Assembly (NCBI RefSeq): GCF_006345805.1
Contig: NC_043022.1
Location: forward strand, 4,774,001 to 4,838,000
Source: Octopus sinensis
Lineage: Eukaryota
Reading direction: 5' to 3'
DNA: 64,000 nucleotides
The notes beneath the pieces are model-generated. The model was not told the origin of the DNA, ran no database searches, and was given only the letters and a program-made list of their open reading frames with translations. A program made the translations under genes and the position numbers. The first letter of the stretch is position 1. Every line of letters starts with the position of its first letter. This document shows, piece after piece, positions 8,076 to 50,110 of the stretch.

Positions 8076-8882
8076 TCTCTTTTACTTGTTTCAGTCATTA
8101 TTTGACTGCGGCCATGCTGGAGCACCACCTTTAGTCGAGCAAATCGACTCCAGGACTTATTCTTAGTAAGCCTAGTACTTAATCTAATCGGTCTCTTTTG
8201 CCGAACCGCTAAGTTACAGGGATAGACCACACCACCAGCATCGGTTGGGGGACAAACACAGACACACAAACATATACATATACACACACACAAACATAAC
8301 ACACACACACACATATATATTAAGTAAATATCTCGAAGACATCGGATCATGAAAGAACTAACAACAAGATATATATATACGATGAGCTTCTTTCAGTTTC
8401 CGTCTACCAAATCCACTCACAAGGCATTGGTCGGCCCAAGGCAATGGTAAGGTGCCACGCAGTGGGACTGAACCCGAAACCATGTGGTTGGTAAGCAAGC
8501 TACTTACCACACAGCCACTCCTGCACCTATATATATATTTATAATAATAAAGGAATATCAATTCCGGCGTCACAGGGATGAGATATTCAAGTTAAGAATA
8601 TTAAGTTGAATTATTCTCAATAAATAAATACATATATATCAAAGTAGCAGTTGGAGACAGAAATCCCCATTTGTTATATTTTTCCTTTATATATATTTTT
8701 TTAGGCGTAATTCACATTTAACTCTTAATTAATTATGGCTGAAACTACAGGGTTCAATGAAATTATTTACACATCTCTATGTTTTTGATATACTAGAAAT
8801 TTATTTATACATCTGTTTAGTTTGATATACCTTTACGTTGAAATATATAATGATAGATAAAATTATAAACGGGGGATAGGTG

Positions 8883-8977
8883 GACCTGAAGATTGGGGTT
8901 GTATATAAGAGGAAGGTTCTGTAAGAGACTGCGTGTCTCATGGACATAGTATACAAACTCATGAAACCCGTGTAGTC
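8883..8977 (+). ncRNA. Type I hammerhead ribozyme motif with extended stem II
   Basis: GAC-CTGAAGA-tTGGGGTTGTATA...TATACAAACTCAt-GAAA-CCCGTG-TA-GTC. Stem I GAC/GTC, GUA cleavage triplet. Confidence 0.7.
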
Positions 8978-9939
8978 GAAAACTTTGAATATGAATAGTA
9001 AGTATTAAATATAATATTCTAAGACATGGTTGAATTTATATTCTGATTTGATGATTGTCACTAATTGATCAGTGTGTGTGTATGTATGTATGTATAAAAG
9101 AGTAAAAGAGTGTTATATATATATTATATATATATATATATACTCTCTTTTACTTGTTTCAGTCATTATTTGACTGCGGCCATGCTGGAGCACCACCTTT
9201 AGTCGAGCAAATCGACTCCAGGACTTATTCTTAGTAAGCCTAGTACTTAATCTATCGGTCTCTTTTGCCGAACCGCTAAGTTACAGGGACGTAGACACAC
9301 CAGCATCGGTTGGGGGACAAACACAGACACACAAACATATACACACACACAAACATACACACACACACACACATATATTAAGTAAATATCTCGAAGACAT
9401 CGGATCATGAAAGAACTAACAACAAGATATATATATACGATGAGCTTCTTTCAGTTTCCGTCTACCAAATCCACTCACAAGGCATTGGTCGGCCCAAGGC
9501 AATGGTAAGGTGCCACGCAGTGGGACTGAACCCGAAACCATGTGGTTGGTAAGCAAGCTACTTACCACACAGCCACTCCTGCACCTATATATATATTTAT
9601 AATAATAAAGGAATATCAATTCCGGCGTCACAGGGATGAGATATTCAAGTTAAGAATATTAAGTTGAATTATTCTCAATAAATAAATACATATATATCAA
9701 AGTAGCAGTTGGAGACAGAAATCCCCATTTGTATATATTTTTCCTTTATATATATTTTTTTAGGCGTAATTCACATTTAACTCTTAATTAATTATGGCTG
9801 AAACTACAGGGTTCAATGAAATTATTTACACATCTCTATGTTTTTGATATACTAGAAATTTATTTATACATCTGTTTAGTTGGATATACCTTTACGTGAA
9901 ATATATAATGATAGATAAAATTATAACGGGGGATAGGTG

Positions 9940-10032
9940 GACCTGAAGATTGGGGTTGTATATAAGAGAAGGTTCTGTAAGAGACTGCGTGTCTCATGGA
10001 CATAGTATACAAACTCATGAACCCGTGTAGTC
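9940..10032 (+). ncRNA. Duplicate hammerhead motif with GAAA reduced to GAA
   Basis: Copy of 8883-8977 lacking one A in the core, either a mutation or a sequencing error. Confidence 0.5.
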
Positions 10033-10163
10033 GAAAACTTTGAATATGAATAGTAAGTATTAAATATAATATTCTAAGACATGGTTGAATTTATATTCTG
10101 ATTTGATGATTGTCACTAATTGATCAGTGTGTGTGTATGTATGTATGTATAAAAGGTAAAAGA

Positions 10164-10203
<40 letters not shown>

Positions 10204-11384
10204 TATGGGGAGAGAGAGAGAGAGAGATACACACATATATATATGCATATATGTATATAGACATAAACCTCTAAACTAATATATTAATAAACACACACAC
10301 ACACACACACATGCATATATACACCCACATATGTTTCTATGCGTTTACACATCCATCAACAAAGTACATATATAGAAATCTATTTGCATACGTCCACTCT
10401 GCCATATTGCATGACGCATTTATGTGATTGCTGCTTCCATATTTACATATTTACAGTGACGATGCCTGACTGGAATCGGTCGAGGACAAGATTCATGGCA
10501 TCGGATCAAAATTACTCCAAGAGAAGCAATATGGCAGCCGATCAAAATCGGTTGGAAGCAACCAATATGGTTGTTAAATGAAATTAACCCAGATGAAATG
10601 AAATGGCATGTATTGGGGGTCTTGGAGTGGGGGAAGCTGTTTGGGTTTGAAGGTGGAGGAGGCAGGCAATGGCGGTGGTAAAGGGGGGAGGGTAGAGTAA
10701 GGAGAGCAAGGAGCAGGGGAGTGGAGGATCGTGGAGAGAATAATAAGTAAATATCTCGAAGACATCGGATCATGAAAGAACTAACAACAAGATTGATACG
10801 TCTTTAATTCCGACACCATTTCGCATCGCCGACAACGGAATCGTTGACCTGCTTCACCTTGTTCGCAACACGCGCAACTTTCGGAACCGCGATCTTCATA
10901 ATGTTAACAACGTCTGTCGGATTTGTAAAGTTATCGTCCATCACACCACAATGCTCCCCCCAACGCACACCGACCTGCCCCACCTCCCCTCACACATAGC
11001 GGCATCATTCTACATCGATGACATCATAATTGCATCCCCCCTCCCATCCATACGATGCTCAATGCAAATGCTGCCCGTCGATGCCTAGTTTACCAATTTC
11101 TGTAGATTAAATTTTTGGCGCCATAATCTTCGGTTAATTAGCAACTGACCTGAACCAAACAGATACCTCCATGTAGCAATATTTGCAGACATGTATTACT
11201 ACATGGTGGTATAGTCTGCTAGAAATTGCAGCCAAATATCCTTCAGGTCTTCCGTTGATGTCTTACTATAAGAAAAGGATAAATGAAAGATGTGATGGGC
11301 ATGGTTGGATGGCTTTGGTCATAGAAGTCAACTCTATATGGATTGAACTTTAACACCACCACCATCGCCACCACCACTGTCAGT

Positions 11385-11755
11385 TACACACACAGCAGAA
11401 TGAGGTGCCACTGCCTAGTACCGAAAATCCTAACATTGCCATCAGGATTCAGGAGCAGATACTGCAACAGCTTGGGCTTCAAGGGCCCACAGCTCTTCAT
11501 TATCCCCCCAAAAAGCCTGACAGGCCTGCATGGTGTGGATGTAGGCTTTTCCAAAACAAAACTAGATCTCCTTCTGTCAAGAGTTCTGGATGAATCTTCC
11601 TCAAGGCAAGAAATATGATGAGGGTAGCAACGTCAAACTCCCTCATTCACCAAATGCCACATATCAGTGGAGGCTTAGTGAAAGTGAAGCAAATCAAGTG
11701 GTGGTGCTCCAGCATGGCCACACCCCTCAAGATGAAACTAGAAAAGAAAGAAATA
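11385..11755 (+). mobile_element. L2/CR1-group LINE 3' fragment, same family as 6628
   Basis: YCNSLGFKGPQLF...KTKLDLLLSRVLDE; tail GGTGCTCCAGCATGGCCACA...GAAACTAG. Confidence 0.78.
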
Positions 11756-11885
11756 ATATATATGCCTATACATGTTTATTTATATGGAAATGTATATATA
11801 TTTCTGAAGCAGGTCGTAGGCTTCAAACATACAAAGAAGACTTTTCTTTTTGCTGAGCATCAAACTAATACACTTATATATATAA

Positions 11886-12282
11886 CTAGCAGAATCGCCC
11901 GGCGTTGCTCGGGTTTGTAAGGGAAATAACTATATAAGCATTTTTAGAGAGTTATAGCCAAAAACTAGAAAAAAATGCATTCAAAATGGAAAAACAATGA
12001 TGGTAAATTTTTTTTTAAATCGTTGACTCATCGTAGACATTTTTAGAGAGTTACTTACCTTATATAATAGCGAAAAAAATGCATTAAAATGGAAAAAATG
12101 ATGGTAAATTTTTTTTTAAATCGTAGACTCATCGTAGACGCGCGCTAATACCCAGAAGGGCTCGATATGAATCACGACTATAAGATACCCGGTTTTGGTT
12201 AAACTGCACCGCAAAATGTGGGAGTAGTTAGGAATTTAAATCGTAGGAGACAGACACACAACTTGACTTTTATATATAAAGA
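11886..12282 (-). mobile_element. Non-autonomous Helitron, copy 1
   Basis: Minus strand reads A|TCTTTATATA... with a 3' hairpin CCCGAGCAACGCCGGG followed by CTAG|T. No TSD. Internal ~100-bp tandem duplication. Confidence 0.8.
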
Positions 12283-12289
12283 TATATAT

Positions 12290-12503
12290 AAAGTTAATCC
12301 AAACAAGAAAACACAAAAAAACACAACAACGCGAGGACGTGGAACAAATATAGTATTATTGGACGCTCAGGAAAGAAGGAAAGAAGGAGGGTTTAATGTT
12401 TTGAGCGGAGCTCTTCGTCAGAAACATAGGAGAAGGAAAGATCCAGAGAAGAGAAGACAAAGGAAAAAAAATTGCCAATGGTACACACGAGGTCACATTT
12501 TGG
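12290..12503 (-). mobile_element. Short (TA)n-embedded element with a decayed hammerhead motif (Penelope-like/retrozyme-like)
   Basis: Minus strand 12425-12391 reads GTTT-CTGACGA-aGAGCtccGCTC-AAAA-CAT-TA-AAC, with GAAA mutated. Flanked by (TA)n. Confidence 0.5.
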
Positions 12504-12519
12504 ATATATATATATATAT

Positions 12520-13640
12520 GTTGGACAAAATATATGGAAAACACCTAGCATCATAATTTTGAAATATCTATAAAACCATCAAAAGCTTGTTTATTTTTAT
12601 GTTTTTTGATTTATTATTAGTGTTTGGCTAAAATTGCTGTTTTTTTCCAGATATCACCAGAAAAAGGTAATTGAAATTCATTAAAACGACAGATTTATTG
12701 GACTTTCAAAGAGGTCAAATTGTTGGGGCTCATATGGCAGGCGCTAGCATAATGAAAACAGCCGAAATGTCTGGTGTATCAAGAAATACCATCTCAAATG
12801 TAAAGACAGCCTTTGAGAAAGAAGGAAAAAACCTCCTCATTGAAACAACTCTGGAAGAAAACCAAAACTTTCAGATAGGGACCGTCAAACTCTTACACAA
12901 ATTGTTAGAAAGGATCACAAAAGTACAGCTCTCAAAATTACTGCAGAGCTTAATAACCACTACTTTCAAAAACAAAGCATTTAGAGTGGAGTAACAACCT
13001 ACAGAATTGGTCCCTAGTGCAGTGGAAGAATGTTATTTTCTCAGATGAGTCATCCTTTACCTTATTTCCGACCACTTGCCGAGTATACGTGTAGAGACAG
13101 CTAAAAGAAGCATTTGACCCAGACTGCCTTCTTCCAACTGTTAAACATGGAGAAGGATCAACGATGATCTGGGTGTGGGGGGCTATATTTTGAAAATCTG
13201 CTTGCCCAATGGTTTCCCTTCATGGCAGAATTAATAGTCAAGACTATTTAAGCATTTTATCTGATCAAATTCATCCTATGGTTGCGGAACTGTTTCCGGA
13301 GGGAAACGCAGTCTTTCAGGATGATAATACACCAATTCGCACAGCTAAAATTGTTACTGAACGGCACGAGGAACATTCTAGTGAAGTTGAACATCTTAAT
13401 CTGGCCACCACAGTCCTCAGATCTCAAGAAATCTATATCCTCTACCATCATCACTACAAGAACTGAAGACTATTTTAGCTGAAGAATGGACAAAAATTCT
13501 TTTGGAAACAATTCAAACTTTGTATGAGTCCAAACTTTGTAGAATTCAAGCTGTAATTACTGCCAAAGGTGGTCCTACCCCATATTAAAATAAATTTGTT
13601 TGAAATTTTAAGGTGTTTCCATTATTTTGTCCAACCCCTG
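12520..13640 (+). mobile_element. Tc1-family DNA transposon with decayed transposase
   Basis: TIRs GTTGGACAAAATAtaTGGAAAACACCT / AGGTGTTTCCATTATTTTGTCCAACCCCTG|TA. Protein remnants include the HTH DFQRGQIVGAHMAG, VIFSDESSF, FQDDN.P and WPPQSSDL, broken by stops and frameshifts. Confidence 0.92.
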
Positions 13641-13686
13641 TACATATATATAGTTCAAATTTACAGAAAAACAGAAGATGAAGACA

Positions 13687-14094
13687 TACTCTATACTCTT
13701 TTATTTGTTTCAGTCATTTGACTGTGGCCATGCTGGAGCACTGCCTTTAGTCGAGCAACTCAACCCCGGGACTTATTCTTTGTAAGCTCAGTACTTATTC
13801 TATCGGTCTCTTTTGCCGAACTGCTAAGTGACGGGGACATAAACACACCAGCATCGGTTGTCAAGCAATGCTAGTGGGACAAATACAGACACACAAACAC
13901 ACACACGCATATATATATATACATACATATATACGACGGGCTTCTTTCAGTTTCCGTCTACCAAATCCACTCACAAGACTTTGGTCGGCCCGAGGCTATA
14001 GTAGAAGACACTTGTCCAAGGTGCCACGCAATTGGGACTGAACCCAGAACCATGTGGTTGGTAAGCAAGCTACTTACCACACAGCCACTCCTGC
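13687..14094 (-). mobile_element. SINE family A, inserted into a short (TA)n-embedded element spanning ~13652-14232
   Basis: Full SINE A. The host element carries a decayed hammerhead-like core on the minus strand at ~14113-14145 and is related to a fragment at ~11803-11873. Confidence 0.85.
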
Positions 14095-14550
14095 TCAGGA
14101 AAAATGGAAAAGTCTTTTAAGCTTTTAGCTTACGCTCTTCAAGAGAAAGGAATAAAAGGACAAACATGTTGAGAGAATGAAAAAAAACCGAAGACAGAAA
14201 ACCTGTGTTGAGTTCAGTGGTCCAAAATGGCGATATATATATACGTGTGTGTGTGTGTGTAGAAGGTTGAAAAGTAATACGTAAGTTGATATGTATAAGG
14301 AAAATAGGACAATATTTCTTCGCATCTGCTGCTACCTACCTACCGAGACAGAAAAATGGAAAAATGTCCCTCATAGCTGAAAACTATGGAAATATTTTTA
14401 AAAAACATTGAATTTAATTTTTCAACAATTTAATTGCTATTCATGCTTTACTCAAGTTGAAAAATTTGCAAAGACTGAAACTGGAACTAAAATATTCTTC
14501 ATGATAAAATTATTTTAGCATTTTCTATCTTGTCCTATTTTCATTATACA

Positions 14551-15063
14551 CTAGCAGTATCGCCCGGCGTTGCTTGGGTTTGTAAGGGAAATAACTATGT
14601 AAGCATTTTTAGAGAGTTACTTCCCTTATAGATGCCAATTCGGACTTTCTTAGCCATTTCTGTTTTGGTGTCTTCAAGCCATGAAGTCGTTGTTCTAAAA
14701 GAACGCTGGTCTCCTTGACAACGCTTTATGACGTTGATTTCCTTACACTCCCTTCCCCACAGCTTCCCGAGGGAGGGAAGACGGGGGAGAAGCAACACAG
14801 GTGCAGGTGTGACCATGGACGCCAACTCCGCCGCCATCGACACACGAAAAATTATGCATTAAAATGGAATAAAAAATGATGTTAAATTATTTTTAAAATC
14901 GTAGACTCATCGTAGACGCGCGCTAATACTCAGACGGGCTCGATATGAATCACGACTATAAGATACCCGAATTTGGTTAAACTGGCACTGCAATGTGGGA
15001 GTAGTTAGGAATCTAAATCGAAGGGGACAGACACTCACACAACTACAGTTTTATATATATAGA
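14551..15063 (-). mobile_element. Non-autonomous Helitron, copy 2
   Basis: Same termini as 11886-12282 (A|TCTATATA ... hairpin ... CTAG|T) with a different internal segment. Confidence 0.8.
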
Positions 15064-15070
15064 TATATAC

Positions 15071-15290: not shown

Positions 15291-15370
15291 AGATATTGTT
15301 ACTGTTAGGAAGATAACAGTAAAGGAAAAGCTACCTTCACAAGTGATGCTGACTCATAAGGACCAGTTTC

Positions 15371-17575: not shown

Positions 17576-17634
17576 AATTTGACATCATATGTATGCATAT
17601 TTTATATATATATACATATACATAATAATAAATA

Positions 17635-18099
17635 TTAGGGAATAAATCCAAATTTACAGGGAAAAAATCAGATTTAGGATTAAATCCAATTTTATAGTAA
17701 AATATTATATAATATTAATTCGAGACAAAACCACTATTTTGCAAAACAAACAAGGAAAGACTTAATCATCATCATCAATCATCATCATCATTTCGTCCGT
17801 TTTCCATGCTAGCATGGGTTGGACGGTTCTACTGGGTCTGTGAAGCCAGAAGGCTTCATCAGGCCAGTCAATCTGGCAGTTTTCTACGGCGGGATGCCCT
17901 TCAAAAATTTTAATACAAAGTAAATAAACCGCCACTACAATCGTTTCATGTCTTCAAATGACATTCGTCAGGTGGATTTCCGATCTTCTAATCAGTTTAT
18001 GTATTGATTAAGTTTATGTATTGATTACTTTATGTATTGATTAAGTCTTTCCTTGTTTGTTTTGCAAAATAGTGGTTTTGTCTCGAATTAATATTATAT
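17635..18099 (-). mobile_element. (TA)n-embedded Penelope-like/retrozyme-like element with ~60-bp inverted duplication and a nested SINE C fragment
   Basis: 17707-17768 and 18038-18099 are reverse complements. Contains an intact hammerhead. Related fragment at ~31457-31575. Confidence 0.65.
17932..17975 (-). ncRNA. Minimal type I hammerhead ribozyme
   Basis: CCAC-CTGACGA-ATGTC atttgaa GACAT-GAAA-CGATTG-TA-GTGG. All core nucleotides present, 5-bp stem II, 4-bp stem I, GUA triplet. Confidence 0.85.
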
Positions 18100-22238: not shown

Positions 22239-22678
22239 AGGTGAAGCTGAAAGACAATGACAACTCTTGAACATTGTGAGAAAACAAAAGCTGTTTGTTC
22301 CTCACCACCACTTGAAAACCAATGCAAATCACATACTCTTTGACATTTGCTTTTCTGATTACTCATATGGGCAAAAGTTTCTGAAAAGGTAAGGATAATA
22401 GAGTTAGGTATGAGTATGACATCAATATAGGCTAGGTTTCAAAACAATTGACGTAGTGCCTGCTGAGAAAAAACAACTTAACGTTCATTGTAAATTTTGC
22501 TTCCCCACCCTGTATATATATATATATATATATATATAAATCAAAAATAAGGGTGAAAAAATTGGATATAACGAGGGCATTTGAATCATAACTGCGAATA
22601 TAATAGGCTGAACTACTCGTGTGTTTGACTTCGTGTTAAAATCTGGCGTGCAGTTCAGCAAATTATATTCATGACGAA

Positions 22679-22753
22679 TCCTACTGATGAGCTGTGGATT
22701 TATTGTGTAAGTAAAATTGCATAATCTATTAACAGTGAAACAATTGTCTAGGG
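22679..22753 (+). ncRNA. Type I hammerhead ribozyme within a ~370-bp (TA)n-flanked element (22539-22907)
   Basis: TCCTA-CTGATGA-GCTGT...ACAGT-GAAA-CAATTG-TC-TAGGG. Full core, palindromic stem III, canonical GUC triplet with predicted cut after 22748. Confidence 0.85.
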
Positions 22754-23055
22754 TTAATCTACATATTTGTTATTTTTCATTTGTCCTGCTTGCTTATGTT
22801 CATAGTTGTGCTAATTTTCCTTGAGAACAATTCTTGATGGTTGAGACCATTGCGGATCTATTTTTAGCACAAGAGCATCCACAAAGTGGATTCTCTCTTA
22901 TATTTGTGTATATATATATAAATATATATACATACATACATATATATATGTGTGTGTATATATGCACACACACACACACACGTGAATTGTCTAAGAGACT
23001 ATAAGTCAGGGAAAAGATGCACTCATATATCTGTCAGTAGAGTGGTTATATTATC

Positions 23056-23273
23056 CAAAATGTATAGTATTGAATATCCATCATGGCTCACATTAGCAAT
23101 TGGTTTCACATAAAGAATACAACGGAGTGTTAGGTAACAAGTTGTCCATATCAACTAACTCTGATGAGTATAAAGTTATATAATCGGCTTGTTACCTAAT
23201 CCTCCATTGTATTTTTTACACGAAACCGATTGGTATGATCAGCCCTGATGGATATTTAATATTATACATTTTG
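23056..23273. mobile_element. Foldback element (~85-bp imperfect arms) with a hammerhead-like core
   Basis: 23056-23141 is complementary to 23188-23273. CTGATGA-GTATAAAG...TTTTACAC-GAAA-CCGATTGG-TA lies at 23161-23235, but stem I pairs poorly. Confidence 0.55.
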
Positions 23274-23326
23274 TATAATATATATATACATATATGTATA
23301 TATACACATACACACGCACTTATGTG

Positions 23327-27088: not shown

Positions 27089-27600
27089 TATGTATGTTTG
27101 TATGTATGTATATGTATATATATATATACACAAGTGTTGGTTATTGTGTGGCAATTGCACATATATACATGTATGTATGTATGTACATATCTATGTGTGC
27201 ATGTCCTTGTGTCTGTGTTTGTCCTCTCATCACTGCTTGACAACCAGTGTTGGTGTATTTACATCCCGGTAACTTAGTGGTTTGGCAAAAGAGATTGATA
27301 GAGTAAGTATTAGGCTTCAAAAGAAAAATGTCCTGGAGTCAATTTCTTTGACTAAAATCCTTCAAGGTGGTGCTCCAGCATGGTCACAGTCAAATGACTG
27401 AAACAAATAAAAGAATAATGGGTAAGTAGCTTGCTTACCAACCACATGGTTCCGGGTTCAGTCCCACAGCATGGAACCTTGAGCAAGTGTCTTCTACTAT
27501 AGCCTTTGCCCAACCAAAGCCTTGTGAGTGGATGTGGTAAATGGAAACTGAAAGAAGCCCATCGTATATATATATATATATATAATATATATATATATAT

Positions 27601-27995
27601 TATGTAAAATATACAAACTGGGACAAGAATGCAAAACATTTAGAAGACGATACAAGAACACGGACGGGACATTCGAAGCCTTCAATATTCAGTCAAGAAC
27701 CGGATCATCCTCGCAATTTCGGCTGATTAATCTTGAGATTGCTCCAATCTGGCCAGCCCCAAGGAAATTCTAAGCTAAGTGCATTAGATTCCTTGGAAGA
27801 AAGCCTTGAATGTATACAAAACAAAGACGGAAAAACGGACGTTGTTACACGAATATGAATACAAAAATATGTAAAAACAATAATGATAATAATAATAACA
27901 AAAACAGGACGTCACAAACAGGCGTCTTTCGACAGGACGAGTAAACTTGAGCTGGTGTGTTAGAAAAATGCCTTAGGGCAGAGAGAGAAAAAAAT
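27601..27995. mobile_element. Unclassified ~390-bp (TA)n-embedded element
   Basis: CpG-retaining non-SINE sequence bounded by (TA)n on both sides, with a structured segment at 27708-27765. Confidence 0.4.
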
Positions 27996-28007
27996 ATTAT
28001 ATATATA

Positions 28008-31181: not shown

Positions 31182-31276
31182 TAATGATACATAGCATGTT
31201 ATATAAATCTGCCAGATTATTGTATCTCTAAAGCATGAAACTTTTAGTAACTCTTTGGTAACTGTGTATATTAAAT

Positions 31277-31318
<42 letters not shown>

Positions 31319-31413
31319 ATTTAATATACACAGTTACCAAAGAGTTACTAAAAGTTTCATGCTTTAGAGATACAATAATCTGGCAGATTTATATAACATG
31401 CCATGTATCATTA
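31182..31413. repeat. Near-perfect 232-bp palindrome centred on (TA)n
   Basis: The ~97-bp unique arms are reverse complements with one visible mismatch (CATAGCATG vs CATGCCATG). Confidence 0.92.
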
Positions 31414-31422: not shown

Positions 31423-31457
<35 letters not shown>

Positions 31458-31570
31458 TAAATTAGAGATAAAACCACTATTAGGCAAATCATACAATGAA
31501 AAACTTAAGCCAATACATAAGATTAATTAATTTATATTATTTTAAATATATATCAAAATTATTAAAAAAG

Positions 31571-31769: not shown

Positions 31770-32802
31770 ATGTGTTGGCAGAAACTACCCACTTTAAAAT
31801 CTTACTGAAAGAAACTATTAGTGTACTGTAGAACAGAAACATCCTTGTGCTGTCAGCAAAGCAAATTATGTTAGCAAAAAGATGGAACAGCTATGGGTTC
31901 TCCCTTAGGACCCAAGTTTGCAACATTCTGCATAACCACTCAACAGAGAATAAAGTGTTACCAAGACATGTAATTATGATGTACAGCGGCTGTACGGATG
32001 ATCTATTCATTGTAACTGACATGGTGGAAGATATGTAGAAATTACAGAAGACCTAGAAAATATATTTCTATGCAAAGCTACAGCATTTGTAATAGTATAA
32101 ATAAAACTCTAAGCGATACAGTGGATCTATCTCTAGACATAAACAGACAAATAGACAAAAAAAATAGAAAGAGAATAACAGATACATCACGTCTGTCTCC
32201 TCCTAAAAAAAACTCAAATAGACATCTGTACTTGTTTGGAGACAATTAATGTCCACACAGACTTTAAAAATGTCGGCAGTGAGATCTCTACTTAGACAAA
32301 TATCTATTTCTCTCTGAGTATTACATCTGACGCTACATCTATTAAAAATACACAAACAACACTTAAAGTGTATTTTACAGCAATCAAATCCAAACTAATT
32401 ATAGAATTGGTAAACACATTAAGAAAAACCTCATAAAACAGATCACAAAATGCTGGACAGCAGACCATAGATACTAATATTCAATAAAGAAATAGTTATT
32501 AGAGACAGAAGCAGTGTAAACACCAAAAGGTAATATTTACTGTATTCCCACTTAAAAGTGGATGTTGTGTTACAACACAGCAGGGATGTGCTGCCTGGGT
32601 GGGCAAGGGTGGCAGTCTCTGTCACGAATGAAGCAGATTGATAGTAACATTTTCCTTTTGTGACAAAATATGAACCTACTCCAATAAAATTATGAAGGTA
32701 ACTCTGATTACGATGCATAAAATGCAAAATATTTTATTGTTTTGTAGATCAGGTAGACATAATTCGCCCCTACCTTTCAATCTCAGTATTTAAGCTACAC
32801 AT

Positions 32803-33128: not shown

Positions 33129-34033
33129 TTATTTTTTTGTGTGTTTTACTTACATAAACATCACCAGCTGCCTACCCTGAGTGATTACTCATGACATGTA
33201 CCTGCAACACAGAACACTGTAATAGTTACCACGGGAGACTCTCTTATACAGGCTTTTGGTGCATATAAGCACTCTTGTTTACATCACTAGCAGGAGATAA
33301 ATCACTTGCCATCGCGACAGCTGAGACAACCAGATCATGTGATTTTGACCTTACTTGGCCTTGTCAGTGGTTGACAACACTTGACCACAGGAGATAGCAG
33401 TGATATCTCTGCCAGTGATATACACAGAATCACAGAGCCTAAACAAGCACTGATACCCTGAATAACCAGTGGGCTTATTAAAAAAATTATTATTAGCAGT
33501 GGTAGAAGCAGTATTAATCCCAGGAGATAATATTTTTCCGCACTTAAAAGTGGGGAAAAATGCCTCTTCTCAATTTGGCTGTAGTTTTTTTGCAGCCACC
33601 AACAATGAATATGAAGCATGAGTGATGGCTTTTAGGCTACCATTTCCATACTTGTATAAAACTACCACTCCTATACCACTTTCACTCGTATCTGATGCTA
33701 CTACTGTTTTAAAATTTGGATCAAAGTGCAATAATGACAGTTCCGATGCTAAAACAGACTATGAGGATTTATCTTCCCAATGTAACTCGTTTTTTTCCCA
33801 AACCTGCTATAATGTTATATATGTCCTTGGTGTGGTAATTGTGCGCGGCTGAAGAAGGCTGTTGACCTACATGTTATATCAATTATGCATTGATATAAAT
33901 TGTTCAATAATGCCAGAAACATATGTACTGCAAAACCCTTTGCATCCTGTTTTTCTTTTGATAAATATATCCTATCACCTACACCACTAGCTGGCATATA
34001 CAGGTGCTTACAGTTATCAAGTATTCACTCTGA

Positions 34034-34093
<60 letters not shown>

Positions 34094-34194
34094 TGGTAAA
34101 ACGGTAAGATAAAAAAAGAAAGAAAGAGACCTCAATATTATGTAAATAGAGGAAATTTATCTATAAAATAATATGTTACATTACTCGATAGTCA

Positions 34195-34257
34195 AGATAA
34201 AACTCTGAGTTTCAGATGCCGAAGTGGAAATCCACAACACCATCTCTTCGGTTATCT
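34195..34257 (-). ncRNA. Hammerhead ribozyme variant (U4-to-C) within a (TA)n-embedded element (34093-34354)
   Basis: AGATAA-CCGAAGA-GATG...CATCt-GAAA-CTCaGAG-TT-TTATCT, with a 6-bp stem I and GUU triplet. The element has a ~38-bp inverted duplication (34167-34204 / 34317-34354). Confidence 0.6.
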
Positions 34258-34379
34258 GGCTATTTGAAAACGCTATGAAAAAATACCGTTATATAAAGGG
34301 AAATTACTGTAATTACAGTTTTATCTTGACTAACGAGTAATGTAACATATTATTGTATATATATATATATATATATATT

Positions 34380-35037: not shown

Positions 35038-36147
35038 CAGGGTGCGAAGGCTAAATTGTTGCCATTTAATACTTTTAATTTCATGCATGTGCATTGTTTG
35101 TAGGGTCAGTTGGGCACCCTCTGTGATAAAAACAGCACCATTCACTCGGCCAGAAATTTGGAAACGACATGCTGTACTGCTTGGCATTCGTGGCAGAAGC
35201 TCTAATAGGAAGAGATGGTAAACACAGAATAACCGTTGGCTTGCTGTGTCCCCAAAACATGTACCGAGATGATAAAAATCAAGCATCCAGTCAACATCAT
35301 GGTGCTTGGAGTGATCACTAGTGATGGCGATGTTATGCCTCCATCAATCTTCCCACACGACCTCAGATTCAACACAGAAGCTTACATCAAGTGCCTGGAG
35401 GAGGTAGTGCTGTCCAGGGTCAAGAGGGTGGCTACTGGAAGACCCTATGTCTGGCAATAGGACTCTGCACCTTGCCACACAAGCAGGAGAACCCAGTCAT
35501 GGCTGTCAGACAATTTCTGCAACCACATCACTCCCTAATATCTGGCTACCTAACTCCCCAGACTGCAACCCCCCTCATTATTAAGTGTGGGGTGCAGTTA
35601 AGTGAGAGACCAACAAAACTCCTCGTAACACCAAAGATGAACTGAAGGCAAGGATTATGGCAGCATTCACCAATTTAAACAAGGAGACTGTCCAGAAGAG
35701 TTGCAGGAGATTCCAAAGTCGTCTGGAGGCCATGGTTGAAGCCAATGGCGATTTTAGTGAATAAATTTACTCTTTAGTACTTCAAGAAATTTTTCTATAA
35801 TTTTAGTAAATATCATCATCATCATCATCATCATCGTTTAACATCCGTTCTCCATGCTAGCATGGGTTGGATGGTTCGACCGGGGATCTGGGAAGCCAGA
35901 AGACTGCACCAGGCTCCAGTCTTATCTGGCAATGTTTCTACAGCTGGATGCCCTTCCTAACGCCAACCACTCCGTGAGTGTAGTGGGTGCTTTTTACGTG
36001 CCACCCGCACAGGTGCCAGGCGAGGCTGGCAACGGCCACGGTCGGATTGGTGCAATTTATGTGCCACCGGCACATCTGTTAAAATGAGACATCAGGTTTA
36101 TTTTCATTTTTGTGTAATTTCAACGACAATTTATTCACCGCACCCTG
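35038..36147 (+). mobile_element. Tc1/mariner superfamily transposon (maT/DD37D-like), internally deleted, with a nested SINE C at 35813-36075
   Basis: TA|CAGGGTGCG...TAAATTG / CAATTTATTCACCGCACCCTG|TA TIRs. Protein remnants KHPVNIMVLGVITSDG...YVWQ*DSAPCHTS...IWLPNSPDCNP. Confidence 0.88.
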
Positions 36148-42748: not shown

Positions 42749-42820
<72 letters not shown>

Positions 42821-43665
42821 CATATATTTATGAATGCATATATGTATCTACATACATATGTATTAATATTTGTATGCATATATATGTATGTATTTATCTA
42901 TCCCTATCAATATCTAAATCTATACCTATATACTATATATATGTTTCTTTTTTTTTTTTTTTTCATTTCTCTGACATAAAAGATACTTTCAAACCATATT
43001 CTCTTGGTCTTTGGCACTGGCTTCTGGTTATTTTTGGAGCTTCTAATGTATAATGTACATCTTCATCTCTTTGAGTTCACCTACCCATTTACACACACAA
43101 ACACACTCACATCCAAATACACACACACACACACCAACACACTGATGGAATCACTCAGAACCAATATTCTCTCTCTCTCTCTCTCTCCTTCTCTGTTCTT
43201 CAGCTGTTCTATTGTTACCATTAGTTACCATTATGGCCGTTATTGTAGTACATTGGCGGTAGAACAGTAAATTATTGGTGTAAAAGGAATATTTACACGC
43301 TGTATTATAGTAATGGGAAATAGATCTAAGCTATAAAAGTCAGTTAAGCACCAAAAGGCCTCTCAGAATTGTACTTAGCTTCTGTTCCATGGCGTTAAGT
43401 AGACAAAGAATAATCTGCCTCCAAGACATGGTGGCTGTCTTTGGCAGATAACATTTCTAGATGATTTCCTACCGATTTCTACCATCTCATTTGGAATAAG
43501 GATATTGGAATAAAGTACAAGGTCAATAACAGAATATTGGTCCCTTATTTGGGATGACATCTCTGCTGCACTCAGCGACACCCTGGGTCAGCGGCTCTCA
43601 GTTGTGGCCCCCAGGGCCACATGCAGCCTTCCCTCTATAAATATAATGCAGTGCTATAAATATAA

Positions 43666-44079
43666 GGCGGCGAACTGGCAGAACCGTTAGCACGCCGGGC
43701 GAAATGTGTAGCCGTATTTCGTCTGCCGTTACGTTCTGAGTTCAAATTCCGCCGAGGTCGACTTTGTCTTTCATCCTTTCGGGGTCGATAAATTAAGTAC
43801 CAGTTACACACAGGGGTCGATGTAATCGACTTAATCCGTTTGTCTGTCCTTGTTTGCCCCCTCTGTGTTTAGCCCCTTGTGGGTAGCAAAGAAATAGGTA
43901 TTTCGACTGCCGTTACGTTCTGAGTTCAAATTCCGCCGAGGTCGACTTTGCCTTTCATCCTTTCGGGGTCGATAAATTAAGTACCAGTTACGCACTGGGG
44001 TCGATGTAATCGACTTAATCCGTTTGTCTGTCCTTGTTTGTCCCCTCTGTGTTTAGCCCCTTATGAGTAGTAAAGAAAT
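43666..44079 (+). mobile_element. SINE family B dimer, probably nested in a hAT-like element starting at ~43589
   Basis: Family B match. CAGCGGCTCTCAGTTGTGGCCCCCAGGGCCACATGCAGCC upstream resembles a hAT terminus. Confidence 0.85.
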
Positions 44080-44804
44080 ATATAATGCAGTTCTTTTTTT
44101 AACTGGTTTGAGTTTTGTTTTTTTTCTTTAGTGCAGCCCCCTAAATAAAAGGTATTTAAACTAGCTTCCATTTTAGAAGAAAAGAACATTTTATAGAACG
44201 GTCAGTGTGCATAGACTTTCGAGTTCTCTACAAGATCATAACAGGAATGGTATCAAGGTGTAGAGAGAAAACCCAAAATGAAATGTCTGAGCTACATGAG
44301 GGTCTCTTGCGGTTCTGGAATATGGCCACTCTTTTAATTCCTGCTAGCAAAATGTTTGGCCATTCTTTGATTCTTCACTTTTGTTTTTCTTTTGCTTGCG
44401 TCTTCTTGTATGGAAGCTATATTGTCATTTGCATTTTACCGTTTGTTTCAGTAATTTGACCGTGGCCATGCTAGGGCACCGCATTGAAGAATTTTTAGTC
44501 AAATGAATTGACGCCAATTCATTTTTCTTTTTTTAAAAGCCTGGTACTTATTCAATCAGTCTTTTTTGCCAACTGCTAAGTTATGGAGACATAAACAAAC
44601 CAACAAAGGTTACCAAGTGGTAGTAGAGGGGATAAACACAGACATAAGGACACACACACGTGCACCCCCCACCGCATTTTTATTAATATTTAGCAGAATC
44701 AACAGAGTGGCTTGTGGGCCAAGAATTTCGTGTGTTGGCACCAACAGACAAAACTGTCATCCCTTGAGTCCTTCTGTTACTTCTGCTAAATATTAATTTT
44801 AAAA

Positions 44805-44943
44805 GAATTGCTTCCCAACCACATGGTTCCGGGTTCAGTCCCACTGTGTGGCACCTTGGGCAAGTGTCTTCTAATATAGTTTAGGGCCAACCAAAGCCTT
44901 GTGAGTGGATTTGGTCAACAGAAACTGAAAGAAGCCCATTGTT

Positions 44944-44995
<52 letters not shown>

Positions 44996-45212
44996 ATATG
45001 TGTGTGCGCTTGTCCCCCCATCCACCCACCCACCCACCATTATTTGACAACCAATGTTGGTGTGTTTACGTCCCTGTAACTTAGCGGTTTGGCAAATGAA
45101 ACCAATAGAATGAGTACTAGGCTTACAAAGAATAAGTCCTGGGGTTGATTTGCTTGACTAAAGGTGGTGCTCCAGCATGGCCACAGTCAACTGATTGAAA
45201 CAAGTAAAAGAG
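44805..45212 (+). mobile_element. SINE family A; further fragments at 44445-44650, 45282-45392 and 45700-45890
   Basis: Matches the family A consensus. Confidence 0.82.
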
Positions 45213-45891
45213 CATATTCATATTTTGAATTCTATTTTGCCTGTTTGCATCAACATACTTATATAAATATATATATATCTATGACGGGCTTCTTTCAGTT
45301 TTCATCTACCAAATCCACTAAGGCTATACAGAAAACACTTGTCCAAGGTGTCACACAGTGGGACTGAACCTGGAACCTCTTACCCCACAGCCAAATAGTT
45401 TTTTTTTGCCTGTGTCTATCATGACTTTCCCAATTTCACACGCTTAAATTCATTAAATAAACAACTTGATTAATTAACGAAGCTAAAAGCGTTGACTAAT
45501 TATTAGTGTTCCTCCAAAGCGGCTGAAAATTCTTCAGCCCCCAAAAGTTGCTCAGCCAAACTCAAGTAAGAACTGTAATAAGGCATTGCTCATAGATCCA
45601 GGACCGGTTGGAGACGTTTTGGCACAGCTGTTTTGGCACAGCCCATTTGGTGTCACTGTTTGGGCGCCGACTTATTGGACAACAAACATTGGTTGGCACA
45701 GGTGTGGCTGTGGCAAGAAACTTGCTTCTCAACCACATGGTTCTGGGTTCAGTCCCACTGCGTGGCACCTTGGATAAGTGTCTTCTGCTATGAGACATCT
45801 TGAGCAAGTGTCTTCTCACAAGGCTTTATTCCTGGGCCAACCAAATCTTTGTGAGTGGATTTGGTGTATGGAAACTGAAAGAAGCCCATTC

Positions 45892-46000
45892 TAGATATAG
45901 ACAGACAGACATGTAGATTGTTAGGTAGCTAGTTAGGTACATAGCTAGGTAGACAGAAAGATAGCAAGGTAGATAGCTAGCTAACAAGATAGATAGATAG

Positions 46001-46059
<59 letters not shown>

Positions 46060-46298
46060 AAGACAGACAGACAAATAGACAGATAGATGATACAGACAGA
46101 CAAACAGAGAGACAGACAGACGGACAGAGAAACGGAGGACAGACAGACAGACAGATAGATAGACTGACAAATAGCTAGCTAGCTAGCAAGATAAATAGAT
46201 ACACTGCTAGCTAGATAGACAGACAGACAGATAGATAGATAGATAGATAGACAAATAGATAGACAGATAGATAGATAGACAGATAGATAGACAGATAC

Positions 46299-46331
<33 letters not shown>

Positions 46332-46420
46332 TAGATAGACAGATAGACAGACAGAGAGATAGACAGATAGATAGACAGATAGCTTGATAGATTGTGGATA
46401 GCTCTGATAGATAGACAGAT
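45892..46420. repeat. (GATA/GACA)n microsatellite
   Basis: Seen directly in the sequence. Confidence 0.95.
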
Positions 46421-47069
46421 ATTTATTTCCTTATTTATTTCTCCAGTGAAACCCTGTCGACCTTATCTGTAGCTGATTAACTTAAATGTGCATGTAAACT
46501 GCTGTCCGTGAGATTTAATTGTGTACCAGCTTGGCCTGGCATTGTGTTTATGGCAGAACTGGCAGCCAGCAGCGTTCAAAGTGAAAACCACTTTTAAAAC
46601 GAGACTTGACACTGATGACAGCAATTCGATAATCGCCGCTGCGTATATGTTGTATATTATATATGCATATATATATATATATACACACACACCCCACTGG
46701 CAATGGTGATGTTGATGATGTATACAAGAGGACATATTTCATAATTTATGACCGCTGTACAAATGTGTGACATTTAAATCTTGGCGCTTCTGGCTGTGGC
46801 GGTGGCGGTGGTGGGGGAAGTAGTGGTGGTCTTGGTGGTCGAGATGAACAGAACCTCCTACATGAAACTGGTGTGTGTGTGCGTGTATATGTATGTATGC
46901 ATATGTATATATACATAAATTTATGTATGTATGTGTGTGTGTGTATATATATATATATGCATGTATACATACATATATATATCATATGTGCATGCATGTA
47001 TATTATATATATACATATATATATATATATGCATGTATATATATATAAATATATATATATATAGATATA

Positions 47070-47101
<32 letters not shown>

Positions 47102-47155
47102 CCTGTAGATATATCATATGTGCATTTATGTATATTATATATATATACATATATA

Positions 47156-47400
47156 TCATCATCATTTAAAATTCGCTTTCCATGCTAGCATGGGTTGGAC
47201 GGTTCAACTGGGGTCTGGGAAGCCAGAAGGCTGCACCAGGCCCAGTCTGATCTGGCAATGTTTCTACGGCTGGATGCCCTTCCTAACGCCAACCACTCCA
47301 TGAGTGTAGTGAGTGCTTTTTACGTGCCACCTGCACAGGTGCCAGACGAGGCTGGCAAACGGCCACGATCGGATGGTGCTTTTCATGTGCCACCGGCACA
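47156..47400 (-). mobile_element. SINE family C
   Basis: Family C match. An oppositely oriented copy lies at 47846-48085. Confidence 0.82.
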
Positions 47401-47409
47401 TATATATAT

Positions 47410-47840
47410 ATACGCTATTTCACCATGCATTACCCCTCTCTCGATATCCTACGTTCTACTTGCCTAGAACCTGTCCTCTGAACCACCCCTCCCACTGGTG
47501 CTCCCCTATATTTCTGCACCCCCCCACCACCATTATAGGTGTCTACTCTTTGAACCCCCCTCTTCAATACGCTATTTCACCATGCATTACCCCTCTCTCG
47601 ATATCCTACGTTCTACTTGCCTAGAACCTGTCCTCTGAACCACCCCTCCCACTGGTGCTCCCCTATATTTCTGCACCCCCCCACCACCATTATAGGTGTC
47701 TACTCTTTGAACCCCCCTCTTCAATACGCTATTTCACCATGCATTACCCTTCTCTCGATATCCTACGTTCTACTTGCCTAGTACCTGTCCTCTGAACCAC
47801 CCCTCCCGCTGGTGCTCCCCTATATTTCTGCACCCCCCCC
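47410..47840. repeat. 157-bp tandem repeat, ~2.7 near-identical units
   Basis: TACGCTATTTCACC starts at 47411, 47568 and 47725. Confidence 0.92.
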
Positions 47841-47845
47841 ATAAA

Positions 47846-48085
47846 AAAAAAAGCACCATCCGAACGTGGCCGATGCCAGACCCCTCTGGCACCTGTGTAG
47901 GTGGCACGTAAAAAACACCCACTACTCTCGCGGAGTGGTTGGCGTTAGGAAGGGCATCCAGCTGTAGAAACACTGCCAGACTAGACTGGAGCCTGGGGCA
48001 GTCCCGAGCTCCCCAGACCCCGGTCGAAACCGTCCAACCCGTGCTAGCGCGGAAAACGGACGTTAAACGATGATGATGATGATGA
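47846..48085 (+). mobile_element. SINE family C
   Basis: Family C match with (TGA)n tail. Confidence 0.82.
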
Positions 48086-48775
48086 TACACATATTCTATA
48101 ATAAAAATTAGACATAGGTGATCGTTGTATTCTATCTTCTCTTGAGGTTCACAGCCAAATGGCTGTGTGGATTCACTTAAAAAATGACACACATGTGGAG
48201 ATGGGTGCATAGATTGGAATGCGGTTTGTATTTTTTTCCTAGCCCCCATAGTTACCGAGAAAAATTGATTAAAACTTTTCTAATGGAATTCCCCTGTTTG
48301 TTCTGCCATTAAAACAACCAGTTGCTCAAACAGCCGGCATATACCATTTCGCTAGCAACAAGGGAGTCAGCCAAAACTTTTGCTATGCTGTCTCTCTTCT
48401 TTCACCTCTTTGTGGAGTTAATAATCTTAATCTTTACATACAGTTTCTCACTCAAACTACATAATAGGCAGAATTGCTCGATTAAGATAGTAGGGTGTTT
48501 TGAGGGAGATTTGGCTGATATTACTACCAGGTCTAGCTACCATGTAGAGGTCTGAACTTAATTTTCATTCACATATTTGCAATTCAAAAATTTAACATCA
48601 TCTTTTCCATAAATTAACTATCGTCTATTTCTCTTTCTCACCCTCTTTCTCTCTTACATACACGCACGCAAGCACACATGCATGCACATGCACGCATGCA
48701 TACATACACACATCCATTTCACATATATCTTCTTTCAATTTCTGCTTCCTGATTAGCAGAAATTGAAGTTAGTCC

Positions 48776-49232
48776 CATCCATGGAACTTGCCAGGAAGTC
48801 TCCAAATCCTCGGAAATTTCCAGGAAATACTCGGAAATTTCCAGGAAGTCCATTCCTCGGAGCTTTCCAGGAAGTCCCCAAATCCTGGGAACTTTCCAAT
48901 AAATCTGCGGAACATTCCAGGAAATCCTCCGAATTTTCCAGGAAATCCCATATTTGGAACTCTCCAAGAAGTTCCCACATCCTCGGAACTTTCTAGGAAA
49001 CACTCAGAACTATCCAGGAAGTCCCCAAATCCTCGGAATTTTCCAGGAAACCTTCGGAACTGTCCAGGAAGTACCACCAACGGTACTTTGCAGGAAGTCC
49101 CAAATCATCGGAACTTCCCAGGAAACACCTGGAATTTTCCAAGACGTCCCATCCTCGGAATTTTCCAGGAAGTCCCAACCCTCGGAACTTTCCATTAAAT
49201 CCCAAATACTTGGAACTTTCCAGGAAGTTTCC
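48776..49232. repeat. Minisatellite of ~20-29-bp units with core GGAA(A/C/T)TTTCCAGGAA
   Basis: Roughly 18-19 diverged units seen directly. Confidence 0.9.
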
Positions 49233-49265
49233 CTTTTGTAGTGTTTCCATACAAGCACACACACA

Positions 49266-49380
49266 CAAGGCAGGCTGGATGCCTTATCTCTGCTAAGTAT
49301 AGAAGCAGATGTGTTACACAAGATTAATCGTGAGGATCTGATCAAAGACTTAGCAATTAAAAAAAAGGAGAAAATTTTAA
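49266..49380 (+). pseudogene. hAT transposase C-terminal dimerisation-domain fragment
   Basis: QGRLDALSLLSIEADVLHKINREDLIKDLAIKKRRKF* matches the RLxxLxLLSIExD...FAxxKxR pattern. Too short for the ORF track. Confidence 0.7.
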
Positions 49381-49982
49381 AAATAAAAACAAAGTGGAAG
49401 TTTATGAAAATAGACATTATTGAGTGTACTTTCCTTCAATTAAGGGCCATAAATTGATCAGCTGAGCTTTCATTTTGGGAGCGGGGTACAAATAGCCAGG
49501 CTGAGACTCATTGATAGTTGAGTGGAGTGCCTTGCTCAAGGAGACTATGTGCTGTAGGTTCCGGGAATTGAAACCATGATTTTAGGATCAAAAACCAAAT
49601 TTCTTAACCCCTATATTAAGCACCTTTGCATGACTGAGGTGGAGAAGAATGGTAAGGGTTGGATGTTAGGGGTAAAGAAAAAGTAGTGGCAGTGGTGATG
49701 GTGGTGGCAGTAGTGGTGATGTAGGTAGTGAGGGTGATGGTGTCAATGGTGGTGGTGGTTGTGGCAGTAGTAGTGGTGATGGTGTCAGTGGTGGTGGTGG
49801 TGGTGGTGATGATGGTGGTGTTGATAGTGGGCAGTGGTGTTGGTGTTGCAAGGCAAAAGAAAAGGGAATTAAAATAAAAATGTGAACTGGTAAATAAGAA
49901 TTGCAGAGAAGGAGAATTTTAAGACACAAACGGAGCAAAAACAAAGATTATATACATAAAAGATGACAAAAGAATACACAAG

Positions 49983-50110
49983 TATGTTGTGAGCTTCATT
50001 AGCTTACAGCTGTTTCGAAATGCACTCACGGTTGAATACAGCATTTAACTATGAATGCATTGCATCTTATAGCAGAAACAACTGTAAGCCAATGGAGTTC
50101 ATAACAATAG
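49983..50110. mobile_element. Inverted repeat of a hammerhead 3' half (Penelope-like terminus)
   Basis: Arms ...CTTACAGCTGTTTC and GAAACAACTGTAAG... (GAAA-CAGCTG-TA), ~34 bp and imperfect. Confidence 0.5.

Follow-up and report, generated by a model that had tools for sequence, protein, structure and literature searches.

Short repeats that carry hammerhead ribozyme motifs and lie next to (TA)n microsatellites raise the question of what kind of mobile element produced them. Penelope-like elements (PLEs) offer one point of reference, being known for 5' truncation, inverted 5'-truncated copies and tails of 30–40 bp (Craig et al. 2021, PMC8557442). Within them, the Hydra clade inserts into (TA)n, carries canonical hammerheads and has an octopus member, Hydra-1_Obim of Octopus bimaculoides, with its hammerhead motif at position 2403 of 2507 (PMC8557442). 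In Poseidon, the reverse transcriptase (RT) starts 111–118 nt into an ORF that the hammerhead cuts at +26, and in vitro the hammerhead was protein-assisted and dispensable (PMC11167929). Minimal hammerheads occur mostly one at a time, “probably related to truncated PLEs”, with pairs occurring on opposite strands 100–700 bp apart (Cervera and de la Pena 2014, PMC4209133). PLEs are annotated as 6.83% (191 Mb, 190 families) of the O. vulgaris genome in its repeat paper, the supplement of which contains no mention of hammerhead or ribozyme, and among the papers listed in a literature search Craig et al. (2021) was the only one to deal with octopus hammerheads.

Here, we investigated a window of 64,000 nucleotides from Octopus sinensis (contig NC_043022.1, positions 4,774,001–4,838,000; coordinates below are those of the window). 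The best protein match to it, at 86%, bears the label O. vulgaris. The original prediction described several unrelated, (TA)n-embedded elements with type I hammerheads and inverted duplications, and read them as a diverse, largely unannotated set of non-autonomous ribozyme retroelements.

Intact hammerheads in the window

A structure-aware scan for type I hammerheads (CUGANGA, GAAA and NUH around stems I–III, open at stem I) found four intact motifs in the 64-kb window, at 8886+, 17971−, 22684+ and 33849+. Three of these are the cores originally called intact at 8883, 17932 and 22679; the fourth had been overlooked. Dinucleotide shuffles, whether of the whole window or within 200-nt blocks, gave the same outcome, a mean of 0.07–0.075 intact motifs with four reached in 0/200 shuffles.

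The 8886 motif (8883–8977) has the core CUGAAGA at 8886, a stem I of 3 bp, a stem II region of 70 nt and a predicted cut after 8974, and the minus-strand 17971 motif (17932–17975, predicted cut at 17936) has stems I and II of 4 and 5 bp. The best hammerhead among the window elements is 22684 (22677–22755, core at 22684, predicted cut after 22748), with a stem I of 7 bp, a stem II of 5 bp within a 46-nt hairpin and the palindrome CAAUUG, while the plus-strand 33849 motif (33845–33931, predicted cut after 33927) combines a 60-nt stem II hairpin with the palindrome CAUAUG. Folding of the stem II regions gave z-scores of −4.38 (22684), −3.70 (33849), −2.00 (8886) and −1.05 (23161, a variant treated below), and in three of the four long-stem motifs folded the hairpins go beyond what the descriptor demands. 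For the 22684 hammerhead a further z of −3.29 was obtained, and the monomer folds of 8886 (z +0.69) and 17971 (z +0.31) were no better than shuffles. The very long stem II, 46–70 nt in four motifs, is the sole unusual trait. At E ≤ 1, Rfam returned no hammerhead among the matches listed (150 of 151), only microsatellite-driven miRNA and snoRNA noise, for which the minimal stem III together with the long stem II is the likely reason. The intact motifs are real type I hammerhead motifs, with self-cutting predicted for them.

Variant motifs, half-sites and element inventory

The expected excess over shuffled sequence stood for the intact motifs (4 vs 0.07) and failed for cores with one mismatch, a class that is not enriched in the window (4 vs 1.8 expected, reached in 5/60 shuffles). 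The 3' half-sites are enriched (17 vs 7.3 expected, 0/200 shuffles). Of the originally listed variants, 34195 (minus strand, U4 to C), with both stem I and stem II present in its centroid fold, is by that prediction a good variant hammerhead, and 23161 also held up, with complete core boxes and weak stems in the window copy. Two others stand as decayed motifs: 12391, with CUGACGA, GAAA changed to AAAA and a non-palindromic stem III, and its further decayed relative at 14113. The defect at 9940 (core 9943), which lies in a tandem duplicate of 8075–9113, is probably a long-read sequencing error rather than decay, since the two units differ mostly by single-base gaps (2 substitutions, 13 gaps). 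The candidate at 11803 was rejected, having neither a convincing core nor stems. What had been listed as a half-site at 49983 is indeed one, although there are two, inverted to each other, and the scan added another inverted pair (31237+/31358−) absent from the original list.

The elements are compiled in Table 1; their summed parts come to ~3.4 kb or ~5% of the window, against the PLE share of 6.83% in O. vulgaris. The segment 22324–22512 was rejected as flanking sequence, being a separate high-copy repeat. Inserted repeats also delimit the 17971 family: its 5' part on the plus strand ends at a repeat at 17770–17902, and another interrupts the 3' side of the 17903–18097 element 33 nt past the cut.

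Table 1. Hammerhead-bearing elements and related repeats in the window
Positions	Strand	Feature	Basis
8541–9072	+	TA-flanked element with intact hammerhead 8886	scan, fold; boundaries by eye
9599–10127	+	second copy in a 1.06-kb tandem duplication, GAA for GAAA	98.7% identity over duplicated unit
12291–12505	−	element with decayed hammerhead (12391–12425)	
14098–14235	−	weakly related (65%), more decayed copy, cut off by a SINE	
17625–17768	+	5' part of 17971 family, inverted to it, without hammerhead	98% over 66 nt
17903–18097	−	element with intact hammerhead 17971	structure-aware scan
22539–22905	+	TA-flanked element with hammerhead 22684, multi-copy family	scan, fold, public contigs
22985–23140	−	5'-truncated inverted copy of 23161 family; starts within loop II, retains GAAA and stem III as well as the longer 3' end of the family	loose contig ends behind 23140
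23145–23282	+	5'-truncated 23161 copy, complete core boxes, stems damaged; core 23161, GAAA 23222, predicted cut after 23235	sound in family majority
31182–31413	.	near-perfect inverted pair around (TA)19, half-sites 31237+ and 31358−; no 5' core found	self-comparison
31448–31531	+	TA-embedded relative (82%) of 17971 family 5' part, without hammerhead	
33845–34039	+	intact hammerhead 33849 and 3' tail up to (TA)27	scan, fold; 3' boundary only
34094–34366	−	TA-flanked element, variant hammerhead 34196–34256, predicted cut at 34201; inverted 50-nt copy of region beginning 3 nt before cut	
49960–50129	.	head-to-head pair of 3' half-sites 50016− and 50075+, both without 5' core	

Inverted duplications and TA context

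Inverted duplications, another part of the original description, were found at five places: 17703–17768/18038–18103 (98%), 23047–23282 (self-inverted, 75%), 31182–31413 (99%), 34155–34204/34317–34366 (92%) and 49960–50129 (69%). The pair at 17625–18097 is convergent rather than head-to-head. Two copies of the 17971 family start at nearly one point beside a TA tract (18097 and 31457), which fits a fixed 5' end and truncation at TA-like microhomology equally well.

The embedding in TA tracts proved real, if weaker than had been stated. On the 3' side, a tract of at least four TA units lies within 170 nt of 8/11 cut sites as compared with 20% of random positions, and of 3/4 intact motifs (P = 0.03), with the 170-nt threshold set post hoc, the paired sites non-independent and three variant or half-site cut positions off by up to ~10 nt. 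The distance from cut site to TA tract is 105–161 nt in 6/11 and 29–43 nt in 2/11, and the 49983 pair lies >900 nt from the nearest tract. No empty insertion sites were observed. The window contains 125 TA tracts of at least five units, and TA context alone is non-diagnostic because such tracts also host SINE and Tc1/mariner-like ends, as at 22324–22512.

Copies in public contigs

Two families, 22684 and 23161, were compared beyond the window. Contigs matching 22240–23285 were recovered from 4/4 runs with three organism labels (1659, 1749, 1205 and 171 contigs), with a single variant letter common to up to 105 contigs. Both families are multi-copy, which removes the possibility that these two are single-copy; a pattern scan of metagenome contigs for each of the two gave 0 matches. 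Among the 40 of 108 variant rows listed, those for the 22684 family keep NUH (GUC/GUA) as well as pairing at 22680 and 22750, the exception being the tolerated first position of stem II. In run X1, the summed contig depth was 111 in the first flank bin, 1,700–4,300 over 22555–22694 and 20,000–41,500 over 22695–22869; these values would agree with copies in the hundreds and with 5' truncation, but such depth is not a copy number, cannot rank the parts and was given no weight as evidence. The coverage of run X13, which may be an RNA run, was left aside.

For the 23161 family, loose contig ends before 23145 (32, 34, 19 and 6 contigs) run on into one common upstream sequence, and those behind 23140 (20, 25, 14 and 4 contigs) bring the absent CUGAUGA half. 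One contig of run X1 has 1262 bases upstream of where it matches at 23145. Since the contigs continue past both points, each of the two window copies is a fragment of a longer family with its 5' part missing, and the two meet head-to-head. In the family majority, 23236 T>A (96% of depth in run X1) restores stem I, and 23214 T>C and 23220 A>G restore stem II. Positions 23169 and 23220, paired as U-A in the window, are C-G in the run-X3 majority, a single compensatory change read from two unlinked tables.

Origin of the elements

The repeats are probably 3' ends, truncated on their 5' side, from several PLE families that target (TA)n, likely of the Hydra clade or resembling it. A protein with RT and GIY-YIG domains would nick a TA microsatellite, and cDNA synthesis would start at a fixed point shortly downstream of the hammerhead and usually stop early, at times adding a second, inverted truncated copy; most insertions would thus retain only the last 100–500 nt, including all or half of a hammerhead. 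The hammerhead itself would serve the parent element by trimming its precursor RNA, probably as a dimer joined through the palindromic stem III or else assisted by protein; copies that are solitary and truncated are likely dead. At 22985–23282 a truncated copy lies beside an inverted one that is truncated as well, and within the window this is also seen at 34094–34366 and 49960–50129. The cut-to-TA distances place the hammerhead near the 3' end in sense orientation, as in PLEs. As for the tandem arrangement of pLTRs, only the error-like 8886/9943 duplicate, a partial tandem, was seen. An ORF listing and six-frame motif search revealed no remnant of RT or GIY-YIG, whether upstream of the motifs or in the window as a whole, and hence none of the families can be linked to an autonomous parent; the peptide RRHRDEIFKLR (8550–8600), loosely like Hydra C-termini, was dropped as unsupported.

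Alternatively, the repeats could be dedicated non-coding, non-autonomous PLE derivatives of 250–550 nt (retrozyme monomers or SINE-like partners) that a PLE protein copies in trans by way of small ribozyme-cut RNAs, possibly circular. We regard this, the sense in which the elements were first interpreted, as a minority option with a modest chance of being right. It agrees with the missing coding remnant upstream of the motifs, the TA on both sides of 22539–22905, 34094–34366 and 8541–9072, the near-coincident 5' starts in the 17971 family, and the derivation of retrozymes, solo monomers included, from PLE pLTRs (bioRxiv 10.64898/2026.07.22.740005). However, the 23161 family extends upstream of both its window copies, which are truncated pieces, and the window holds no head-to-tail hammerhead tandem of retrozyme size (170–400 nt). 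The 8886/9943 tandem does provide two hammerheads 1057 nt apart, but its unit includes a SINE, and most of the differences between the two copies are error-like indels. Among 15 of 25 contig joints listed, none leads back at the cut site, a weak argument as contigs break at repeats.

Ends of another repeat class (MITE, satellite or LINE 3' UTR) that gained hammerheads independently of PLEs are improbable: the sharing of TA tracts with SINE and Tc1/mariner-like ends speaks for them, but the inverted arms are internal duplications with hammerhead parts rather than terminal inverted repeats, families unrelated to each other have the motif about equally far from one end, and the motif's form agrees with PLE hammerheads. 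Chance matches in AT-rich, microsatellite-rich DNA would account for the one-mismatch class as a whole and probably for 11803, and both the Rfam result and the 8886 and 17971 folds as monomers are in line with them; for the intact set the shuffles refute chance, the long stem II hairpins and the stems repaired at family level also oppose it, and as a general explanation it is very nearly negligible. Truncated PLE ends are thus favoured over dedicated elements or retrozymes.

It is rather doubtful that octopus has many dedicated non-coding, (TA)n-homing ribozyme elements, ~10^5 per genome, copied by Hydra-type PLE proteins in trans as a dispersed form of retrozyme. Such dedicated elements, with their stem II hairpins of 46–70 nt, would be invisible to Rfam and to short-spacer descriptors. 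Extrapolated from four intact motifs per 64 kb, a genome of ~2.8 Gb (a size derived from 191 Mb = 6.83% in O. vulgaris) would hold ~10^5, with the wide error of a single window. Because stem II reaches 46–70 nt and Rfam scores none of the motifs, standard searches are suggested to undercount octopus hammerheads. For cleavage assays, the 22684 motif, with its 7-bp stem I and perfect palindrome, would be a handy substrate.

Comparison with known systems

Negative motif searches and supplement comparison indicate that the window families differ, at sequence level, from the published Hydra-1_Obim and octopus Naiad families: outside the elements, one 16-letter motif from each of the Hydra-1_Obim and octopus Naiad 3' ends had 0 and 2 three-mismatch matches, respectively, and the supplement of Craig et al. 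(2021) contains none of six window motifs. These apparently uncatalogued hammerhead families add to the octopus repeat inventory, and may already have consensus entries in Repbase, Dfam or the O. vulgaris library; with 190 PLE families described in O. vulgaris, “largely unannotated” is doubtful at superfamily level.

Naiad PLEs (Naiad_Obim, Naiad_Ovul; PMC8557442) have a (TA)n preference, as the window elements may, and Naiad_Ovul is flagged “HHR_half_core” with widely spaced core halves, but their published octopus 3' ends are unlike the window elements by eye and motif search; a Naiad origin, considered for the “HHR_half_core”, was rejected against the published octopus consensuses. Non-LTR retrozymes of metazoans (Cervera and de la Pena 2020, PMC7229834; Li et al. 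2026) are likewise short, non-coding, AT-rich, type I and PLE-related. They are, however, defined by head-to-tail tandem units and circular RNAs of 170–400 nt, neither of which is seen for the window elements, and one of the two families tested (23161) is truncated. The minimal PLE hammerheads of metazoan genomes, described in passages of PMC4209133 that do not name octopus, have in common with the window motifs the type I form, short stem I, palindromic stem III and a longer stem II whose 5' end carries an unpaired base. Also in common are the many heterogeneous families within one genome, with motifs that mostly occur singly and pairs that lie on opposite strands; the window motifs differ in extending stem II to hairpins of 46–70 nt.

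The Hydra clade (Hydra-1_Obim, Penelope-13_HM) has a (TA)n preference, as the window elements may, and shares with them a hammerhead of type I lying close to the 3' end, a near-palindromic stem III of 5–7 nt inside A15.1–U16.1, an extra base after A9 and, in Penelope-13_HM, an inverted 5'-truncated copy. In contrast to the short hairpins of the published table, stem II measures 46–70 nt in four window motifs, and the window has several unrelated families, with no linked ORF, where one octopus Hydra family is listed. The stem III forms at 34213 and 31237 match those of Penelope-3_HM and Penelope-2_HM (PMC8557442). The predicted affinity to Penelope-like minimal hammerheads in several unrelated families is borne out by the form of the motifs, and their arrangement is the already published anatomy of PLE 3' ends, octopus included.

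Hammerhead motifs

A descriptor scan that required the boxes CUGANGA, GAAA, and UH, a short stem III, and no fewer than 3 bp in each of stems I and II detected four intact type I hammerheads (see table), among them the three cores that the original prediction had placed at 8883, 17932, and 22679. As it had implied, the motif frequency exceeds that of shuffled sequence, with 0.07–0.075 intact motifs expected and 0 of 200 shuffles reaching four. Stem III has 6 nt and is palindromic or near-palindromic in all four. Stem II regions of three intact motifs folded into long hairpins, whereas the monomer fold of the whole motif was strong for 22684 only (z −3.29); for 8886 and 17971 shuffles folded equally well, as expected for motifs that are thought to work as dimers. 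Hammerhead was absent among the listed matches of an Rfam search of the window, and the long stem II likely lets these motifs escape both Rfam and descriptors with short spacers.

One-mismatch variants as a class were not enriched (4 observed vs 1.8 in shuffles), so that each variant requires separate support. The predicted variant at 34195 retains stems I and II in its centroid fold, and that at 23161 is backed by its family (see below), although its own stem II region gave no long hairpin (z −1.05). Decayed relatives are a plausible reading of those at 12391 and 14113, while 11803 found no individual support as a hammerhead. The 9940 site lies in a 1.06-kb tandem duplicate whose copies differ by 2 substitutions and 13 gaps; such differences appear closer to long-read error than to evolution, and the duplication may be an assembly artefact or very recent. 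Half-sites were enriched (17 observed vs 7.3 expected), and the one predicted at 49983 is actually part of an inverted pair, with a second pair elsewhere.

Hammerhead motifs and other repeats in the window (+/−, strand)
Feature	Position	Observation
Intact hammerhead (core start)	8886+	stem II hairpin z −2.00
Intact hammerhead	17971−	predicted cut at 17936
Intact hammerhead	22684+	stem II hairpin z −4.38
Intact hammerhead	33849+	stem II hairpin z −3.70; additional to the prediction
Inverted half-site pair	50016−/50075+	opposite strands; half-site scan
Inverted half-site pair	31237+/31358−	opposite strands; half-site scan
Tandem duplication (1.06 kb)	8075–10166	SINE + hammerhead element, TA at junctions
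High-copy repeat, separate	22324–22512	left of TA tract; extends past 22324 in other copies; end presumably resembles a Tc1/mariner terminus
TA-flanked 400-bp element	27600–28000	possible heavily decayed hammerhead-like core, minus strand; passed no scan
95-bp segment	31617–31711, 32120–32217	94% identical, 500 bp apart; one copy between TA tracts, other in ordinary sequence
Related repeats	11885–12270, 14552–15060	both begin ACTAGCAG + GC-rich hairpin; taken to be Helitron/Helentron-like
Broken transposase remnants	12510–13640, 35038–35800	presumably Tc1/mariner-type
Tandem repeat	47410–47839	unit 157 bp, 2.7 copies, 98% matches; hammerhead core absent
LINE-derived protein	62270–62743	86% identity to protein labelled Octopus vulgaris; next match 51%
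LINE 3′ pieces	53960–54332, 62469–62841	93% identical, inverted; latter gave octopus-labelled protein match

Element anatomy and copies in other DNA

Repeats abound in this eukaryotic DNA: the window has 125 TA tracts of at least 5 units and numerous SINE copies, which we take to resemble octopus SINEs. These and the LINE-derived protein (see table) point to an octopus host. A TA tract lies within 170 nt downstream, in the hammerhead sense, of 8 of the 11 cut sites tested vs 20% of random positions (105–161 nt away at six sites, 29–43 nt at two), and of 3 of the 4 intact ones (P=0.03, post-hoc threshold). The predicted TA setting therefore holds for most sites but not for 17936, the one intact cut site without nearby TA, whose 3′ side is broken by another repeat, nor for the 49983 pair, distant from all TA tracts. 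Five inverted duplications (69–99% identity) were found, as anticipated, and by BLAST the families are indeed unrelated, except that the segment at 31448–31531 is akin to the 17971 family but lacks a hammerhead.

Parts of 22240–23285, which contains the neighbouring 22684 and 23161 elements, occur in 20 listed runs from nine studies (at most 0.49 of words), none recorded as RNA. From four runs with three organism labels (X1, X3, X4, X13), 1659, 1749, 1205, and 171 contigs were placed there, with one variant letter common to up to 105 contigs; both families are thus multi-copy. Metagenome contig scans for the two families gave no match. In the 23161 family, contig loose ends before 23145 agree on a single upstream continuation and those behind 23140 carry the CUGAUGA half missing from the window copy, hence the window holds two 5′-truncated copies, head-to-head. 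With the majority letters, stem I regains its first pair and stem II is rebuilt at 8 bp; one compensatory U-A/C-G pair was read from unlinked tables. Among the variants listed for the 22684 family, pairing is mostly kept and the cut site alternates between GUC and GUA. The 40 of 108 variant rows listed include none at invariant core bases, and the 15 of 25 joints listed include none going back at the cut site.

Origin and comparison with known systems

With motif, multi-copy status, truncation, inversion, and 3′ TA adjacency observed, the elements work like the 3′ ends of Penelope-like elements (PLEs) and are probably PLE-derived. From known PLE biology, an RT plus GIY-YIG protein would prime reverse transcription at nicked TA tracts, cDNA synthesis would begin internally, at a set position downstream of the putatively self-cleaving hammerhead, and early stops and inversion would yield short 3′ pieces. 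The check for linked RT plus GIY-YIG ORFs suggested originally had a negative outcome in the window, where ORF listing and motif search gave no ORF remnant of a PLE parent. In the excerpts consulted on anole Poseidon, synthesis starts 111–118 nt into the ORF and the hammerhead cut lies at +26; its ribozyme needs the protein and is dispensable for in vitro insertion (PMC11167929).

Retrozymes, the other origin proposed, are defined in the excerpted sources by tandem units and circles (PMC7229834; bioRxiv 10.64898/2026.07.22.740005), whereas the tandem test failed within the window and circles were not seen. In the sections drawn on for PLEs, 5′ truncation, inverted copies, and tails are documented, and almost all members of the Hydra clade defined there, which includes Hydra-1_Obim from O. 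bimaculoides, insert in (TA)n and carry canonical hammerheads near the 3′ end (PMC8557442, Craig et al. 2021). Two stem III forms in the window are identical to Hydra forms listed there, but without an ORF the elements are not assignable to Hydra; comparison with the motifs listed ruled out Hydra-1_Obim and octopus Naiads as their identity (PMC8557442).

Minimal hammerheads are described, in the parts cited, as heterogeneous, mostly single, probably truncated-PLE-derived, and numbering thousands per genome, with opposite-strand pairs and weak cleavage by dimers only (PMC4209133, Cervera and de la Pena 2014). Within the PLE, retrozyme, and hammerhead literature examined, the long stem II is the sole trait without a match. 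The hammerhead feature is real and of a known kind, with new families at most, and these may already have consensus entries in repeat libraries. The roughly 5% of the window taken by the elements is close to the PLE share of the O. vulgaris genome, given in the excerpt as 6.83% in 190 families (PMC13282606).
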